A DNA stretch of 22,968 nucleotides from Thermoplasmatales archaeon SW_10_69_26 (GTDB lineage: Archaea > Thermoplasmatota > SW-10-69-26): NCBI GenBank assembly GCA_003009755.1, contig PXUB01000019.1:1-22968 (forward strand), given 5' to 3'. Made by a program: the position numbers and the translations under genes. Each line of letters begins with the position of its first letter. Position 1 is the stretch's first letter. Positions 16,230-21,091 of this stretch are shown here, one piece after another. The notes below the pieces were generated by a model. The model had not been told where the DNA came from, did no database searches, and was given only the letters and a program-made list of their open reading frames with translations.

Positions 16230-16754
16230 GTGGCGGCGGACGAAGGAACGGATAGCGAGTTCGGACCCGAAGTCGAGGGGGATTTGACGGAACTCCTCGG
16301 CTCCGACCTCCTACGTTCAGCCCAGACGAAACTTCTGATCCTCTCGAGATTGAGAGATCGGCGTTCCACCGGCGCAGAACTGGCGAAAATGCTCGATGTC
16401 GACCGGAGTGCCGTGTACCGGCACCTGGCGGACCTTGATGAGGGAGGCTACGTCGAACGCCACGAAACTGGCCGGAAGTGGATCTACTACGAGCTAACGT
16501 CGAAGGGGAAGACACTAGCGCGGGCCAGCAACCACCTGTTCAAGATCTCCGTCCTTTTTGCGCTCGGAGGGGTCCTCGGCTACCTGATCCTTCGGTGGCT
16601 TGCCGCGCTCTGGACGTGGGAACCCGTAACTCGCGACGTGGGCCCATATACCCCCCGACCCGAATTCCCCCTTCTGCCGGTTCTCAGTGTCCTCGCCCTT
16701 GGACTCATCGTCTTCCTTGTATCGTACCTCCGTCGACGATGGAACACATCGTAG
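16230..16754 (+). CDS. ArsR-like winged-helix regulator with two C-terminal transmembrane helices
   Basis: TKLLILSRL...STGAELAKMLDVDRSAVYRHLADL.E.GYVER...KWIYYELT.KG, followed by two hydrophobic segments and a basic tail. Confidence 0.85.
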   Translation: MAADEGTDSEFGPEVEGDLTELLGSDLLRSAQTKLLILSRLRDRRSTGAELAKMLDVDRSAVYRHLADLDEGGYVERHETGRKWIYYELTSKGKTLARASNHLFKISVLFALGGVLGYLILRWLAALWTWEPVTRDVGPYTPRPEFPLLPVLSVLALGLIVFLVSYLRRRWNTS

Positions 16755-16788
16755 ACCGGGCCTGGCCCCAACTCTGCGGGTGGCCACG

Positions 16789-17216
16789 TCACTGCCGGTC
16801 AATAGGATCGAGGCCGTGACCACCGAAGCTGGCCCACGCGAGGGGGATCGCCTCGCCGGTCGCCAGAAGGACGAGCACCAACAGCATCCCCTCGAGCGGG
16901 CCGCCAGTCGGAGAGAGATCCCCGATCGAGGCGTTGGGCGGGAACCAGGCGATCTCCGGTCGCCCCGAACAGCCAAGACCGCCCACGTGAGAAGCGCCAG
17001 CGGCGCGATCACGCCCTCGGGGACTGCGTCGAACATCGCGGTCATCAGGCCCACGAAGGCAGCCTGCAGCGCAGGGGCGAGCGCGAGGGTGCCGACCTTC
17101 GCGATGGGGCTTCAACGCGGCTCTATCGAGTGCGGGTGTGGTTCCACCACCACGCATGACACCGCAACACGTCCTGCAGCGAGGCCCGCGTATGCCAGGT
17201 TCCCGGCCTTCGCCAT
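16789..17216 (-). pseudogene. Degraded membrane-protein gene
   Basis: ATG 17216 with an in-frame TGA at 17112-17114. Hydrophobic segments (TLALAPALQAAFVGLM, IAPLALLTWAVLAV) continue in a different frame (GMLLVLVLLATGEAIPLAW). TATAAG box at ~17279-17284. Confidence 0.45.
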
Positions 17217-17539
17217 GCCCCGATGTGAGGCTCGCTATCACGGGGATCGTGCCACGTGATCGTCCCGTGGTCGCTGCTCTTATAGGCCACCGCCCCGCCG
17301 GCCATCGCTCCGACGCACCCCAAGCGGCACCCCGCCGGCGGTCAAGTGGCGGCGGCGTCGTGACCATCGCTGCCTTCGGCCGACGGCGAGCAGCCGGATC
17401 TCGAATCCGATCAAAGAGGGGCCCACGACGCTTTCCCTCAGCCCCAGCCCGCTCTCGACAACGATCCCCCTCCCGACCGGTCGCCCACTGACCGATTTCC
17501 TCCGCCCCATCTACCTCCTTCCTTCGCCGAGGCCGACGA

Positions 17540-17641
17540 ACATCGGCGACTGAAGGGTCGGACCGAGCAGGAAGCCCCCGTAGGACCCGATCTCCGATCG
17601 AGTGGGCTTCCTGCGATGGGAGACTCTGAGGGAGCCGATGT
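17540..17641. repeat. Degenerate ~102-bp palindrome (rod-like hairpin)
   Basis: ACATCGGC/GCCGATGT, GGGTC/GACTC and a perfect 11-bp GCAGGAAGCCC (17567-17577)/GGGCTTCCTGC (17604-17614), separated by 7x7 internal loops. Confidence 0.55.
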
Positions 17642-17785
17642 GAGGAGGAGGACCCCGTTTTTCGCCCCCCTGTAACGTCCGCGATCATCGTGAGGCTGAT
17701 GTGTCAGCCCACTCTGCGGATTGACCCTGGGGGCGGGCCGCCCGGGGGTACCGGGGGAGGCCGGGGGACGAGGTCCCCACCGGGG

Positions 17786-17887
17786 TCCTGTATGGCGGCG
17801 CGTTGCCCCGGCATCATCGACGGGCCCGGGAAGGGGGTCAGCCTCCCGATCGGCCCACTCGCCAGGCGCCCATCAGGCGCGCCGCCA
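17786..17887 (-). ncRNA. Archaeal box H/ACA guide RNA (single hairpin), predicted target 23S rRNA A-loop U2554 (E. coli numbering)
   Basis: Lower stem GGCGGCGC/GCGCCGCC. Pocket strands UGAUGGGCG (17875-17867) and CAAC (17805-17802). Upper stem CCUGGC/GCCGGG with K-turn-like GA/GAUGAU. ACA at 17791-17789, 14 nt from the start of the 3' guide. Own TATA-like box ~25 nt upstream. Confidence 0.75.
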
Positions 17888-17908
17888 GCGCGTGCTAGGT
17901 CGTCCCCC

Positions 17909-17914
17909 GTTAAG
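17909..17914 (-). promoter_or_regulatory. TATA-like box for the H/ACA RNA
   Basis: CTTAAC on the minus strand, centred ~25 nt upstream of the hairpin 5' end (17886) and divergent from the serB promoter. Confidence 0.5.
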
Positions 17915-17962
17915 GATGTTGGCTGGTTGGGCGTGTCGGGGAGAGGGTCGGCGGCGACGGTG

Positions 17963-17968
17963 TTTAAG
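17963..17968 (+). promoter_or_regulatory. TATA box of serB
   Basis: TTTAAG, the same hexamer as upstream of pyrB, ~25 nt before GTG 17993. Confidence 0.55.
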
Positions 17969-17992
17969 GCCCCTGCCGGCATGGCGGGCACG

Positions 17993-19222
17993 GTGCCCTC
18001 CGACCACCTGCTCTCGCTGCACGCGGTCGCGGACGATCGTCGAGGCCTGTTGGCCGAGATCTCGGGCTTGGTGACCTCTCTCCGTGGCAACATCGTCCAC
18101 GTGGAGCACCGCCAGGTCCGCGGGATGTTGACGTTGCTGATGCTCGTCGAGGACAGCGAGGAGGGCGGCGACGAGCGCCAGCGGTTGGAGCGCATGAGCG
18201 AGGTCCTGGAAACCCGGTTGGATGGGCTGGGCGTGGAGGCCAACACCGAGGTCTCCGAGAGCCAGCCGGATCCGCCGGTGCGGGATCTGCGCGTGATGAC
18301 GATCATCGGGGCCGACAAGGTCGGCGTGATGCACGCCATCACGCGCACCATCGCCGATCACGAGGTCCCGATCATCCAGACCCACCAGGTCGCCTCGGGC
18401 GAGTTCATGGCGTTCGAGATCGTCGTGGACGTCGGCGGGTCCAACGGCCACGGCCCCGTCGACATGGATGCCCTGCAGGAGGACGTCCGGTCGACGTGCG
18501 AGGCGGTCGGCGTCGACGTCGTCGTGCAGCCCCACGGCGTCAACCGGGCCCGGCGCCAGCTGGTGGTCTTCGACATGGATTCGACGTTGATCCAGGGGGA
18601 GGTCATCGACGAGCTGGCGAAGGCGGCCGACGCGGCCGAGGAGGTCGAGCAGCTCACCGAGCGCGCGATGGCTGGCGAGCTCGACTTCGAGGAGGCGTTG
18701 CGCGAGCGCGTCGGCATGCTGGAGGGCCTGACGGAGGACCAGCTCGAGCAGGTGGCCGGGTCGATGGAGCTGACGCCGGGCGCCAGCGACCTGGTGCGCG
18801 TGCTCAAGCAGATGGGGTTCAAGGTCGCCCTCATCAGCGGCGGGTTCACGTTCTTCACGGACCGCTTGCAGGACAAGCTGGGCCTCGACCACGCGTTCGG
18901 CAACGAGCTCGTCATCGAGGACGGCGAGGTCACCGGCGAGGTGCAAGGCGAGATCATCGACAGCGAGCGGAAGGGCAAACTCGTCGAGGAGCTGGCCGAG
19001 CGCGAGGGCGTCCCGCTCGAGCAGGTCGTGGCGATCGGCGACGGCGCCAACGACCAGATCATGCTCGACAACGCGGGCCTGGGCATCGCGTTCAACGCCG
19101 AGGAGATGCTCCGGCAGACCGCCGACGGCCAGATCACGCGCGACAACCTGGCCGGGTTGCTGTACTGCTTGGGCGCCAGCGACCGAGAGATCGACGCTGT
19201 GCGTCAGCCGGACGCGGGCTAG
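17993..19222 (+). CDS. serB: Phosphoserine phosphatase SerB with two N-terminal ACT domains
   Basis: ACT motifs DRRGLLAEIS and GADKVGVM. HAD motifs VFDMDSTLIQGEVIDELA, ISGGF, K and GDGAND. True start GTG 17993 or ATG 17981, not 17690. Confidence 0.95.
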   Translation: MPSDHLLSLHAVADDRRGLLAEISGLVTSLRGNIVHVEHRQVRGMLTLLMLVEDSEEGGDERQRLERMSEVLETRLDGLGVEANTEVSESQPDPPVRDLRVMTIIGADKVGVMHAITRTIADHEVPIIQTHQVASGEFMAFEIVVDVGGSNGHGPVDMDALQEDVRSTCEAVGVDVVVQPHGVNRARRQLVVFDMDSTLIQGEVIDELAKAADAAEEVEQLTERAMAGELDFEEALRERVGMLEGLTEDQLEQVAGSMELTPGASDLVRVLKQMGFKVALISGGFTFFTDRLQDKLGLDHAFGNELVIEDGEVTGEVQGEIIDSERKGKLVEELAEREGVPLEQVVAIGDGANDQIMLDNAGLGIAFNAEEMLRQTADGQITRDNLAGLLYCLGASDREIDAVRQPDAG

Positions 19223-19291: not shown

Positions 19292-19486
19292 GTGGAGCCG
19301 TCGATGCCGACGCCGGACGGGAGCCGGTTGGCCGGCACGATGGGTGTTGCCGTCGACGACCAGAACCGAGGGCAGTTGTTCGAGAAGGTTTAAGACCTCG
19401 TGGCTGCCTGCGGCGCTCGGAGGCGGGAGGCCCTGCGAACGCAGTCCACGCTCGTCGTCGTGCTCGTTGCCGTGACCACCATCACC
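19292..19486 (+). repeat. Copy 1 of a ~195-bp duplicated upstream+promoter+SD+signal-peptide module
   Basis: Aligns by eye with 21300-21493. Shared blocks include GACGCCGGACGGGAGCCGGTT, GGGCAGTTGTT..AAGGTT, GGAGGCGGGAGGCC and TGCGAACGCAGTC.ACGCTCGTCGT.GTGCT.GTTGCCGTGA.CACCA. Confidence 0.85.
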
Positions 19487-21091
19487 ATGGGAATGGCCCC
19501 GCTGGGCGCCAGCCAGGGCACCGAAAAGACCCAACAAGAACCGGCAACCCCTGCACTCGCTCCCACCGAGGACCGCAGAGAACGCAACCATCGCCTGCCG
19601 CTGGACGCAGACCGCCCACACGACGGCGTGGACCGCCCCGACCGCTTGGACGACGAGGCTCCCGTGCCGCGGCCGAACCCCAACCAGCGACAGGCCCAGC
19701 CTGCGCAGGGGCTAGCACCCGACGACCCCGGCTGCCTCCCGCACCCACCGATCCGGATCGTCGACGACGCGATGTTTCAGCTCGGCCCCGCCGTCGGCGT
19801 CACCAACCCCACGGCCGCCGGCACCGCCGAGGACCCCTACGTGATCGAGGGCTGGTGCATCACACCCCAAGCTCCCGAGATCGTGGAGCAAGCGCCCTTC
19901 GGCCCCGTCGAGAGTGCCGGCATCGCGATCGACCACACCGAGGCCCACGTCGTCATTCGCGACAACCGCATCGACGGGAACGCGGTCGACAATCCACGAG
20001 TGGTTACCCAACAGCAAGTCGGCATCGACCTGGTCGACGCCGCCAACGTCGCGATCGCGAACAACACGATCACGAACAACGACGACGGCGTCGTCCTCGA
20101 CGAGTCGAGCGGGACCACCATCGCGAACAACACGATCACGAACAACAACGACTGGGGCGTCTACTCCTACAGGTCGAGCGGGACCACCATCACCAACAAC
20201 ACGATCACGAACAACGACTTCGACGGCGTCTTCCTCGACGAGTCGAGCGGGGCCACCATCGCGAACAACACGATCACGAACAACGACTGGGGCGTCGACC
20301 TCTACAGGTCGAGCGGGACCACCATCACCAACAACACGATCACGAACAACAACGACGACGGCGTCGACCTCGGCGCGTCGAGCGGGGTCGCGATGCGGGA
20401 CAACGAGTTCGGAAGCAACGGGGTCCGGATTGGCGGCTATGAGGCGAACCACTACCAGCACTCGATCCAACCCTCGAACACGGTGAACGGGGAACCGCTC
20501 GTGTACGTCCGCAACCAAGAAGACGTGCACGTCGAGCAACCGGCCGGCCAGGTAATCCTCGCCAACACCACCAACGCCACCGTCGAGAACGTCGACGTTT
20601 CCGACACCAGCACGGGACTCCAGCTCGGCTTCACCGACAACACCACGATCGCGAACAACACGGTCACGAACAACAACTTCGACGGCGTCCTCCTCTACGA
20701 GTCGAGCGGGGCCACCATCGCGAACAACACGATCACGATCAACGACGACGGTGTCCTTCTCTACAGGTCGAGCGGGACCACCATCGCGACCAACACGATC
20801 ACGAACAACAACGACGACGGCGTCGACCTCTACGACTCGAGCGGGGTGGAGGTCCACCAGAACAACATCCACGACAACGACGACTTCGGCCTCGAGGTGT
20901 TCGCCGGCGACACCGTCCACGCCGAGAACAACTGGTGGGGCGCCGCCAACGGCCCATCTGGCGGCGAGACCGATGCCTGCACCGATGCCAACGCCGACGG
21001 CGACGGCGACGCGATCACCACCGACGACGCCGAGGTGTGCTTCGACCCGTGGCGAACCAGCCCGAACCCCGACGCGGGCGCAGGCGGCTAA
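19433..21091 (+). CDS. Secreted right-handed parallel beta-helix (NosD/PbH1-like) repeat protein
   Basis: Signal-like N-terminus, HPPIRI...GTAEDPYVIEGW cap, repeated IANNTITNNxxGVxLxxSSGTT units, NTVNGEPLVY...GQVILAN insert, and AENNWWG...FDPW end. The start position matching the other module copy is CTG 19433; the track start is GTG 19400. Confidence 0.88.
   Translation: MRTQSTLVVVLVAVTTITMGMAPLGASQGTEKTQQEPATPALAPTEDRRERNHRLPLDADRPHDGVDRPDRLDDEAPVPRPNPNQRQAQPAQGLAPDDPGCLPHPPIRIVDDAMFQLGPAVGVTNPTAAGTAEDPYVIEGWCITPQAPEIVEQAPFGPVESAGIAIDHTEAHVVIRDNRIDGNAVDNPRVVTQQQVGIDLVDAANVAIANNTITNNDDGVVLDESSGTTIANNTITNNNDWGVYSYRSSGTTITNNTITNNDFDGVFLDESSGATIANNTITNNDWGVDLYRSSGTTITNNTITNNNDDGVDLGASSGVAMRDNEFGSNGVRIGGYEANHYQHSIQPSNTVNGEPLVYVRNQEDVHVEQPAGQVILANTTNATVENVDVSDTSTGLQLGFTDNTTIANNTVTNNNFDGVLLYESSGATIANNTITINDDGVLLYRSSGTTIATNTITNNNDDGVDLYDSSGVEVHQNNIHDNDDFGLEVFAGDTVHAENNWWGAANGPSGGETDACTDANADGDGDAITTDDAEVCFDPWRTSPNPDAGAGG
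20053..20846 (+). repeat. Two blocks (5 + 3 units) of 66-69-bp coding tandem repeats
   Basis: Recurring AACAACACGATCACGAACAAC...GGCGTC...TCGAGCGGG.CCACCATC at ~20053-20388 and ~20641-20846. Confidence 0.85.

Follow-up and report, generated by a model that had tools for sequence, protein, structure and literature searches.

The closest described relatives of the RNA reported here form the HgcG family (Pab40, Pf7, Pho40 and Afu4), three-motif box H/ACA small RNAs (sRNAs) of Thermococcales and Archaeoglobus (RF00064; PMC2377435). Motif 3 of Pab40 targets a helix 69 uridine of Pyrococcus abyssi, and the pseudouridine has been made in vitro; motif 2 of the P. abyssi RNA is active at another site, U1932, and the older targets of Afu4 and Pf7 motif 2 were judged to violate the targeting rules (PMC2377435). 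According to Muller et al., Afu4 motif 2 had been proposed for position 2601 of Archaeoglobus fulgidus, the equivalent of P. abyssi 2647, and the proposal is doubted (PMC2377435). A two-hairpin arrangement is known from Haloferax, where the 3′ stem-loop of sR-h45 guides the helix 69 uridines U1915 and U1917 (PMC7075261), and two Haloferax hairpins were once regarded as counterparts of Pf7 stems II and III (PMC2584109). In yeast, the 3′ hairpin of snR10 guides the pseudouridine at U2923 in the A-loop (PMC2879522). Here we describe an RNA gene in Thermoplasmatales archaeon SW_10_69_26, found in contig PXUB01000019.1 of assembly GCA_003009755.1. The whole stretch analysed, positions 1 to 22,968 of the forward strand (22,968 nucleotides, nt), is referred to as the window and is contig C19 of the host genome (2.8 Mb, archaeal, 95% complete). 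The minus strand of the window from 17886 to about 17650 very likely encodes a box H/ACA guide RNA of ~237 nt, in which hairpin 1 would address the A-loop of 23S ribosomal RNA (rRNA) at the position of Escherichia coli U2554, and hairpin 2 would address helix 69 (Table 1).

Hairpin 1 was first noticed in a first-pass annotation made from the letters of the window, which proposed a minus-strand hairpin with a basal stem, a pocket, an upper stem and a GA / GAUGAU motif, an ACA box 14 nt after the start of the 3′ guide, and a TATA-like box upstream. We found every one of these elements where it had been placed, the ACA box being read at 17791-17789, 14 nt after the first base of CAAC. The lower stem comprises 9 base pairs (bp; GGCGGCGCG / CGCGCCGCC, 17886-17878 with 17802-17794), the 5′ pocket strand reads CC-UGAUGGGCG, and above the upper stem lies an asymmetric internal loop, with GA on the 5′ side against GAUGAU on the 3′ side, topped by another stem. 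The box, ANA in general form, lies 15 nt from the upper stem in all eight homologous sequences described below, in agreement with the published spacing of 14-15 nt (PMC4652768) or 15 +/- 1 (PMC7075261). Counted along the 3′ strand of the upper stem, the distal G:A pair of the putative kink-turn (K-turn) stands 9 positions up, and the published distance is 9-10 (PMC7075261). At the same distance upstream as the TATA-like box of the host, CTTAAG- or TTCAAG-like words occur in two members of its family, G002 and G004.

We refer to the host genome as G000, to members of its own family as G001, G002 and G004, to members of other families of the same class as G011, G015 and G016, and to a genome of another class of the phylum as G031. 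When 161 nt around the hairpin were compared with 60 relatives by blastn, three strong matches were obtained (E values 1e-14 to 3e-16), all in the host's own family (three of its five members) and spanning just hairpin 1. In a MAFFT alignment of the four family sequences, the pocket and K-turn words were invariant and three lower-stem pairs had changed on both sides; this alignment, made independently of any model, was 96% paired compared with at most 55% with slid partners. A covariance model, R1, gave matches in 7 of 20 class relatives, 6 of which we accepted, and one match in another class (G031) among the 150 phylum relatives sampled. Of the thousands of candidates in a genome, the first-look filter of R1 scored no more than 150 or 26, so its misses are not to be taken as absences. 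The seven accepted homologues represent three families of the host's class and one genome of another class, and together with the host they form a set of eight sequences, G011, G015, G016 and G031 included.

In the alignment of this set, which was fitted to the model and thereby favours structure somewhat, 94.9% of the cells were paired compared with at most 49% with slid partners, 16 of 25 pairs had changed on both sides, and none of 500 shuffles reached any observed measure. The lower stem, pocket and upper stem of an H/ACA hairpin were thus recovered with 94.9-96% of the cells paired in the two alignments, and we consider the covariation seen in these sequences decisive in separating hairpin 1 from chance. 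The conservation of pocket and box that the first-pass annotation had named as a check was also found, along with the covarying stems: CAAC was kept in all eight sequences and AUGGGC in seven, and an ANA box stood exactly 10 nt after CAAC in all eight (ACA in six, AAA and AGA in one each). GA was kept on both K-turn strands in all eight, in the orientation of the Rfam HgcG consensus. The sequence flanking the loci differs in the other class families and in G031. One further R1 match, in G008 (32.4 bits), was rejected as a homologue: its guide words differ (CAUCGGCG, GAAC), an ANA box is missing from the expected place, it is not followed by a second hairpin, and its sequence context is coding-like.

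To define the target, we scored every U of the host 16S and 23S rRNA for H/ACA geometry (23S gene at G000:C38:74866-77710). The host A-loop reads GGGGUUGUUCGCCCAUUAAAAGGGG, in which GUUG pairs with CAAC and CGCCCAUUA pairs with UGAUGGGCG (one G-U), leaving UU free; complementarity to both pocket strands had been predicted before the host rRNA was consulted. The free UU corresponds to E. coli U2554/U2555, U2514 of the host 23S rRNA being E. coli 2554, with the numbering anchored on the UmGm tandem at 2552/2553 and on the definition of the A-loop (PMC2584109, PMC4644070). The fit amounts to 9 + 4 = 13 contiguous pairs, compared with 7 at the next-best rRNA site (7-9 pairs at the best sites outside the A-loop), and shuffling yielded 13 pairs with 5 of 3000 guides and with 1 of 300 rRNAs. 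The A-loop sequence is identical to that of the host in G002, G015, G011 and G008, the relatives with an assembled 23S rRNA gene.

Across the homologues, conservation covers two duplexes, CAAC:GUUG and AAUGGGC:GCCCAUU, which flank U2554-U2555-C2556; the pocket bases that vary are the one preceding CAAC (G, A, U or C) and the one following AUGGGC (G, U or C). In the host family, C2556 is paired with an additional G of the 5′ strand, which gives the classic unpaired U-N; as far as complementarity goes, the two-part pairing with U-N free at the top of the pocket is present. In Haloferax experiments the 5′ U is the converted one (PMC7075261), and the spacing rule together with the first free base makes U2554 the predicted target of hairpin 1. 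The conserved guide core of hairpin 1 has two matching sites in the 2.8 Mb of both strands, one of them the A-loop. The other, G000:C42:119165 (minus strand, GUUGUUCGCCCGUU), lies ~3.5 kb from the cbf5 gene (C42:114676-115626) and is probably a chance match.

A second hairpin follows hairpin 1 in seven of the eight loci, the shared block having been first seen in the four family members. Its lower stem is CGCCCCC / GGGGGCG, its pocket strands read A-GGGUCA-A and C-GUUAC-A, and its upper stem bears the same GA / GAUGA loop as hairpin 1; since the first GA is CA in hairpin 2 of G001, the second GA of the bulged strand is the conserved one. The host helix 69 reads GGGGGUAACUAUGACCCUC, identical in G002, G015 and G011 (assembled 23S), and hairpin 2 forms 5 + 7 pairs around host U1884, leaving U-A free at E. 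coli U1915. The ANA box of hairpin 2 is AAA in G000, G004 and G001, ACA in G002, G015 and G016, and AUA in G011, with a spacing of 15 nt in all four family members. The lower stems have very different sequences among the loci and still fold; in the cross-family MAFFT alignment of hairpin 2 their columns are out of register, so we give no pair counts.

The long linker between the hairpins is limited to the host family, and 8 to ~30 nt separate the hairpin-1 box from the lower stem of hairpin 2 in G011, G015 and G016. An outer helix is present in the unconstrained minimum-energy fold of all seven homologous RNAs, with a different sequence in each. In the predicted folds this clamp would enclose the linker and hairpin 2 and place both ANA boxes at helix junctions. 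Hairpin 1, hairpin 2 and the clamp tail together define the extent of the RNA given above, and the lone guide of ~100 nt originally proposed is therefore replaced by hairpin 1 of a two-hairpin RNA.

The Rfam search suggested in the first-pass annotation gave no match at gathering score in the window, and the RF00064 (HgcG) cut-off of 77 bits, which is set over three motifs, was not reached. In a permissive search, hairpin 2 aligned weakly with HgcG motif 3 (RF00064 model positions 203-265, 15.9 bits, E value 0.023), sharing its guide words and K-turn orientation; hairpin 1 itself gave no match to RF00064, even permissively. Within the phylum sample, RF00064 matched 53 of 151 genomes at E <= 0.01, one of them over the cut-off, and at the same E value there was none in 19 of the 20 class relatives, the sole class match being weak. 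In the two best phylum hits, motif 2 reads AAUGGGU...CAACCCC (G034) and AUGGGU...CAACCC (G027), again the A-loop guide, its 3′ duplex being longer than in the host, and motif 3 is a helix 69 guide. The G031 hairpin found by R1 aligns with HgcG motif 2, motif 3 being absent.

Because hairpin 2 resembles motif 3 and the hairpin-1 type, as seen in G031, resembles motif 2, we infer that the host RNA represents motifs 2 and 3 of the HgcG/Pab40/Pf7/Afu4 family without motif 1, the relationship running through intermediates. The host RNA would then be a diverged HgcG-family RNA and not a hidden, new class of guide. The motif order is the same as in HgcG. The RNAs differ in that HgcG has three motifs and the host RNA two hairpins, the K-turn of the host RNA carries a one-base bulge, and an outer clamp helix is predicted in it; no such helix is seen in the HgcG consensus structure line. 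As a separate observation, the minus strand of G031:C2 1494-1695, in a small genome, carries an HgcG-like RNA of motifs 1 and 2, a truncation opposite to that of the host.

The likeness to the Haloferax sR-h45 type is one of layout and predicted targets: its 3′ half is matched by the host RNA and its 5′ half is not. Both RNAs have two stem-loops with the 3′ one directed to helix 69, both have a non-ACA box (AUA in sR-h45, AAA in hairpin 2 of the host), and both hosts live in salt. The 56-nt linker of sR-h45 is called special to haloarchaea (PMC7075261), and the host linker is also long, in the ~50 nt class, although only in the host's own family, unlike the rest of the class. The 5′ stem-loop of sR-h45 makes the pseudouridine at 2605, E. 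coli 2586 (PMC7075261, PMC2584109). We considered this Haloferax SL1 site, E. coli U2586, as a target of hairpin 1 and rejected it, the scan of the host rRNA giving no acceptable fit there. The likeness to yeast snR10 is one of predicted function; snR10 is a eukaryotic hairpin-hinge-hairpin-tail small nucleolar RNA without a K-turn and has an extra role in pre-rRNA processing. The human counterpart of snR10 is SNORA21, and we take yeast U2923 to be E. coli U2554. The parallel with snR10 drawn in the first-pass annotation thus stands for the A-loop as the target, while the exact position depends on that assumed equivalence.

The stretch occurs in public sequencing runs that bear the label halite metagenome; five studies account for 13 rows at a share of at least 0.27, among which may be the source of the DNA itself. 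Soil-metagenome runs with small shares were not used. In all four RNA libraries examined (two studies), one contig of 170-176 nt lies over 17714/17719..17886, so that hairpin 1, the linker and the beginning of hairpin 2 belong to a single molecule. Each of the four alignments stops at 17886, the lower stem's first base, and the contigs carry 1-3 further unmatched letters. The contigs of these libraries do not cover serB, the divergent neighbour of the RNA gene, or 17650-17713, and we conclude nothing from the uncovered stretches. A minus-strand transcript of ~100 nt had been expected; the element is covered by contigs that stop where its 5′ end was predicted. The predicted RNA is longer, ~237 nt, and its strand is not given by the contigs. 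A variant at position 17800, A in place of G on the plus strand, appears in two RNA runs from the same study and turns a lower-stem G-C into G-U; as this still pairs, the variant preserves the structure. Genes for Cbf5 (400 bits), Nop10 (77.8 bits) and L7Ae (100.8 bits) are present in the host genome, each scoring over its curated cut-off.

With these partners, the RNA could work as follows. L7Ae would bind both K-turns, and Cbf5-Nop10, with Gar1 if present, would dock on each lower stem and ANA box. Pre-23S rRNA would then pair with both strands of each pocket, and Cbf5 would isomerise the first unpaired uridine. Hairpin 1 would in this way have the third A-loop base (E. coli U2554) converted to pseudouridine, in the loop by which the CCA end of the A-site transfer RNA is held, and hairpin 2 would produce the near-universal helix 69 pseudouridine or pseudouridines at E. 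coli 1915 and perhaps also 1917, as in Haloferax. The RNA is probably a two-hairpin form derived from the three-hairpin HgcG/Pab40/Pf7/Afu4 family, of which it keeps motifs 2 and 3.

Several observations weigh against this reading. The K-turn is non-canonical in the host family and G031, its 5′ strand being one base short (8 vs 9 positions), and this build is common to both hairpins of the host RNA; the K-turns of G011, G015 and G016 are symmetric, with 9 positions on the 5′ strand, as in the HgcG consensus. With 4 bp, the 3′ guide duplex is short by the standards of known guides, in four of the eight homologues no pair can form between C2556 and the base next to the upper stem, which would leave three target bases unpaired there, and the 5′ guide of G015 has a mismatch (AUUGGGC). 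The available parts of the published rRNA pseudouridine maps of P. abyssi (PMC2377435), S. islandicus (PMC11077068) and Haloarcula/Haloferax (PMC2584109) list none in helix 92. Gar1 (PF04410) was not detected in the 95%-complete host genome with a model that finds three of four archaeal controls. The RNA contigs reveal neither strand, level nor true ends of the RNA and count as support, not proof. The folding energy of hairpin 1 is unexceptional (z = -0.23; an equal or better fold in 77 of 200 shuffles), a measure made uninformative by the high G+C content (~68% in the window and in the genome).

Among other explanations, the one that survives best is that of a true H/ACA RNA whose hairpin 1 modifies U2555, or both uridines, which we regard as unlikely. 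In this register, U2554 is paired with the extra G before CAAC, the free bases are U2555-C2556 and pairing of the 5′ guide begins at G2557, again giving 13 contiguous pairs (5 + 8); five of the eight homologues have a G or A before CAAC, able to pair with U2554. The doubted Afu4 motif 2 proposal bears on the same position: if the Pab35 sites 2549, 2672 and 2697 are, as we assume, E. coli 2457, 2580 and 2605, the offset is 92, and P. abyssi 2647 would be E. coli 2555, in the A-loop. In the other three homologues, however, the base before CAAC is U or C and unable to pair, and the first unpaired base after CAAC lies at n+15 from the box, the usual place. The modified base could thus be U2554 or, less probably, U2555.

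We find it much less probable that the main role of hairpin 1 is that of a chaperone in the folding or assembly of helices 90-92 of the pre-23S rRNA, with little or no modification. Such a role would suit the 4-bp 3′ duplex, the three unpaired target bases in half of the homologues and the pseudouridine maps just described, and yeast snR10 is a dual-function RNA that also acts in processing (PMC2879522). That processing role nevertheless sits in the other hairpin of snR10 (PMC2879522), and the ANA spacing and K-turn distance, exact in all eight homologues, matter for catalysis more than for pairing. Finally, the notion that there is no guide RNA, just a G+C-rich chance hairpin or a plus-strand serB leader, would accommodate the ordinary folding energy, the lack of an Rfam match at gathering score and the strand-blind contigs, but it retains almost no credibility and is refuted as far as sequence analysis can go, given the compensatory changes in both stems around fixed pocket bases, a second hairpin of the same build with a textbook target, RNA contigs that end at 17886, 95 nt before the serB start, and do not run into serB, and the different flanks of the hairpin-1 loci in other class families and G031. 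Returning to the guide for U2554, the comparisons indicate that the locus is a real, conserved and probably expressed RNA gene whose predicted A-loop target is well supported by sequence.

Table 1. Features of the predicted guide RNA gene and its divergent neighbour (positions in the window; RNA letters are those of the minus-strand product).
Feature	Position	Strand	Evidence or remark
TATA-like box CCTTAAC	17909..17915	-	23-29 nt upstream of the first base of the RNA; read directly, putative promoter
Hairpin 1, 98 nt, box H/ACA motif, predicted 23S A-loop guide (E. coli U2554; alternative U2555)	17789..17886	-	Anatomy, covariation, target fit
Hairpin 1 lower stem, 5′ strand GGCGGCGCG	17878..17886	-	6 of 8 modelled pairs changed on both sides, 8 homologues
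Hairpin 1 5′ guide UGAUGGGCG	17867..17875	-	Pairs with 23S CGCCCAUUA, one G-U
Hairpin 1 upper stem (P2), 5′ strand CCUGGC	17861..17866	-	4 of 6 pairs changed on both sides
Hairpin 1 putative K-turn GA, non-bulged strand	17859..17860	-	Invariant in 8 homologues; orientation of the Rfam HgcG consensus
Hairpin 1 putative K-turn bulged strand GAUGAU	17813..17818	-	Second GA would form the sheared pairs; final U without partner
Hairpin 1 upper stem (P2), 3′ strand GCCGGG	17807..17812	-	Covariation
Hairpin 1 3′ pocket strand G-CAAC	17802..17806	-	CAAC pairs with 23S GUUG (E. coli 2550-2553)
Hairpin 1 lower stem, 3′ strand GCGCCGCC	17794..17801	-	Covariation
Hairpin 1 ACA box	17789..17791	-	Preceded by AU; 15 nt after the upper-stem end
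Clamp helix, 5′ strand GGACCCCGG	17780..17788	-	Directly after the ACA box; pairs with the tail past the second box
Linker, ~44 nt, one or two small predicted hairpins	17736..17779	-	Folding
Hairpin 2, box H/ACA motif, predicted helix 69 guide (E. coli U1915, perhaps also U1917)	17660..17735 (about)	-	Conservation, target fit
Hairpin 2 5′ guide GGGUCA	17722..17727	-	Pairs with 23S UGACCC; invariant in 7 of 7
Hairpin 2 3′ guide GUUAC	17672..17676	-	Pairs with 23S GUAAC; GUUA invariant in 7 of 7
Hairpin 2 ANA box, AAA in the host	17660..17662	-	15 nt after the upper-stem end
Clamp helix, 3′ strand CGGGGUCC	17650..17657	-	Predicted; probable 3′ end region of the RNA
serB, phosphoserine phosphatase with N-terminal ACT-like part	17981..19222	+	Divergent neighbour of the RNA gene; codon periodicity, homologue starts

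On the plus strand, the open reading frame (ORF) 17690..19222 has no codon periodicity before ~17950-17980, and the serB homologues also begin there. The real start of serB is near 17981-17993, not 17690, which bears out the earlier suspicion that an over-extended serB ORF masked the RNA. A TATA-like word, GTTTAAGG at 17962-17969 (+), stands merely 12-19 nt ahead of the ATG at 17981; the GTG at 17993 follows it by ~27 nt, a distance compatible with a leaderless start, and the true start may therefore be 17993. Outside the host's own family, where identity is 76-78%, the best serB relatives found are mostly bacterial, chiefly from Actinomycetota and Myxococcota (metagenome-assembled genomes, MAGs, as well as isolates; 36-56% identity), besides a single unclassified archaeal MAG (42%), which hints at gene transfer. 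On the opposite flank of the RNA gene, the ~0.9 kb at 16757-17642, between it and a winged-helix gene (16230..16754, +), show some codon-like G+C periodicity on the minus strand and may be a decayed gene; the minus-strand frame is interrupted by at least four stops, so no downstream gene is fused to the RNA. Farther along, a 563-amino-acid ORF at 19400-21091 (+) has many tandem TIANNTITNN(N)D units and a signal-like N-terminus, and its product looks like a parallel beta-helix repeat protein.

The locus contributes an RNA gene, unannotated and probably expressed, to what is known of an uncultured and little-studied lineage of halite archaea and corrects an over-long serB call. It also provides sequence-level support for RNA-guided pseudouridylation of the A-loop in archaea, with pocket bases conserved across two classes and more distant relatives carrying longer complements to the same A-loop. 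This site has until now been documented mainly in eukaryotes, the archaeal case being the old, disputed Archaeoglobus prediction; Hansen 2002 is said to have mapped A-loop modifications in archaea and may report archaeal A-loop pseudouridines. The HgcG family appears modular, with motifs 2 and 3 in the host, 1 and 2 in G031, and all three elsewhere. We tentatively raise the possibility that guidance of the A-loop (U2554) is old and widespread in archaea through HgcG motif 2, inherited or mirrored by snR10 and its human counterpart, and that the host's class, salt-dwelling Thermoplasmatota, rebuilt the RNA into a two-hairpin form with a clamp that might order or gate the loading of Cbf5 on the two hairpins. 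The finding bears on whether the A-loop pseudouridine predates eukaryotes.

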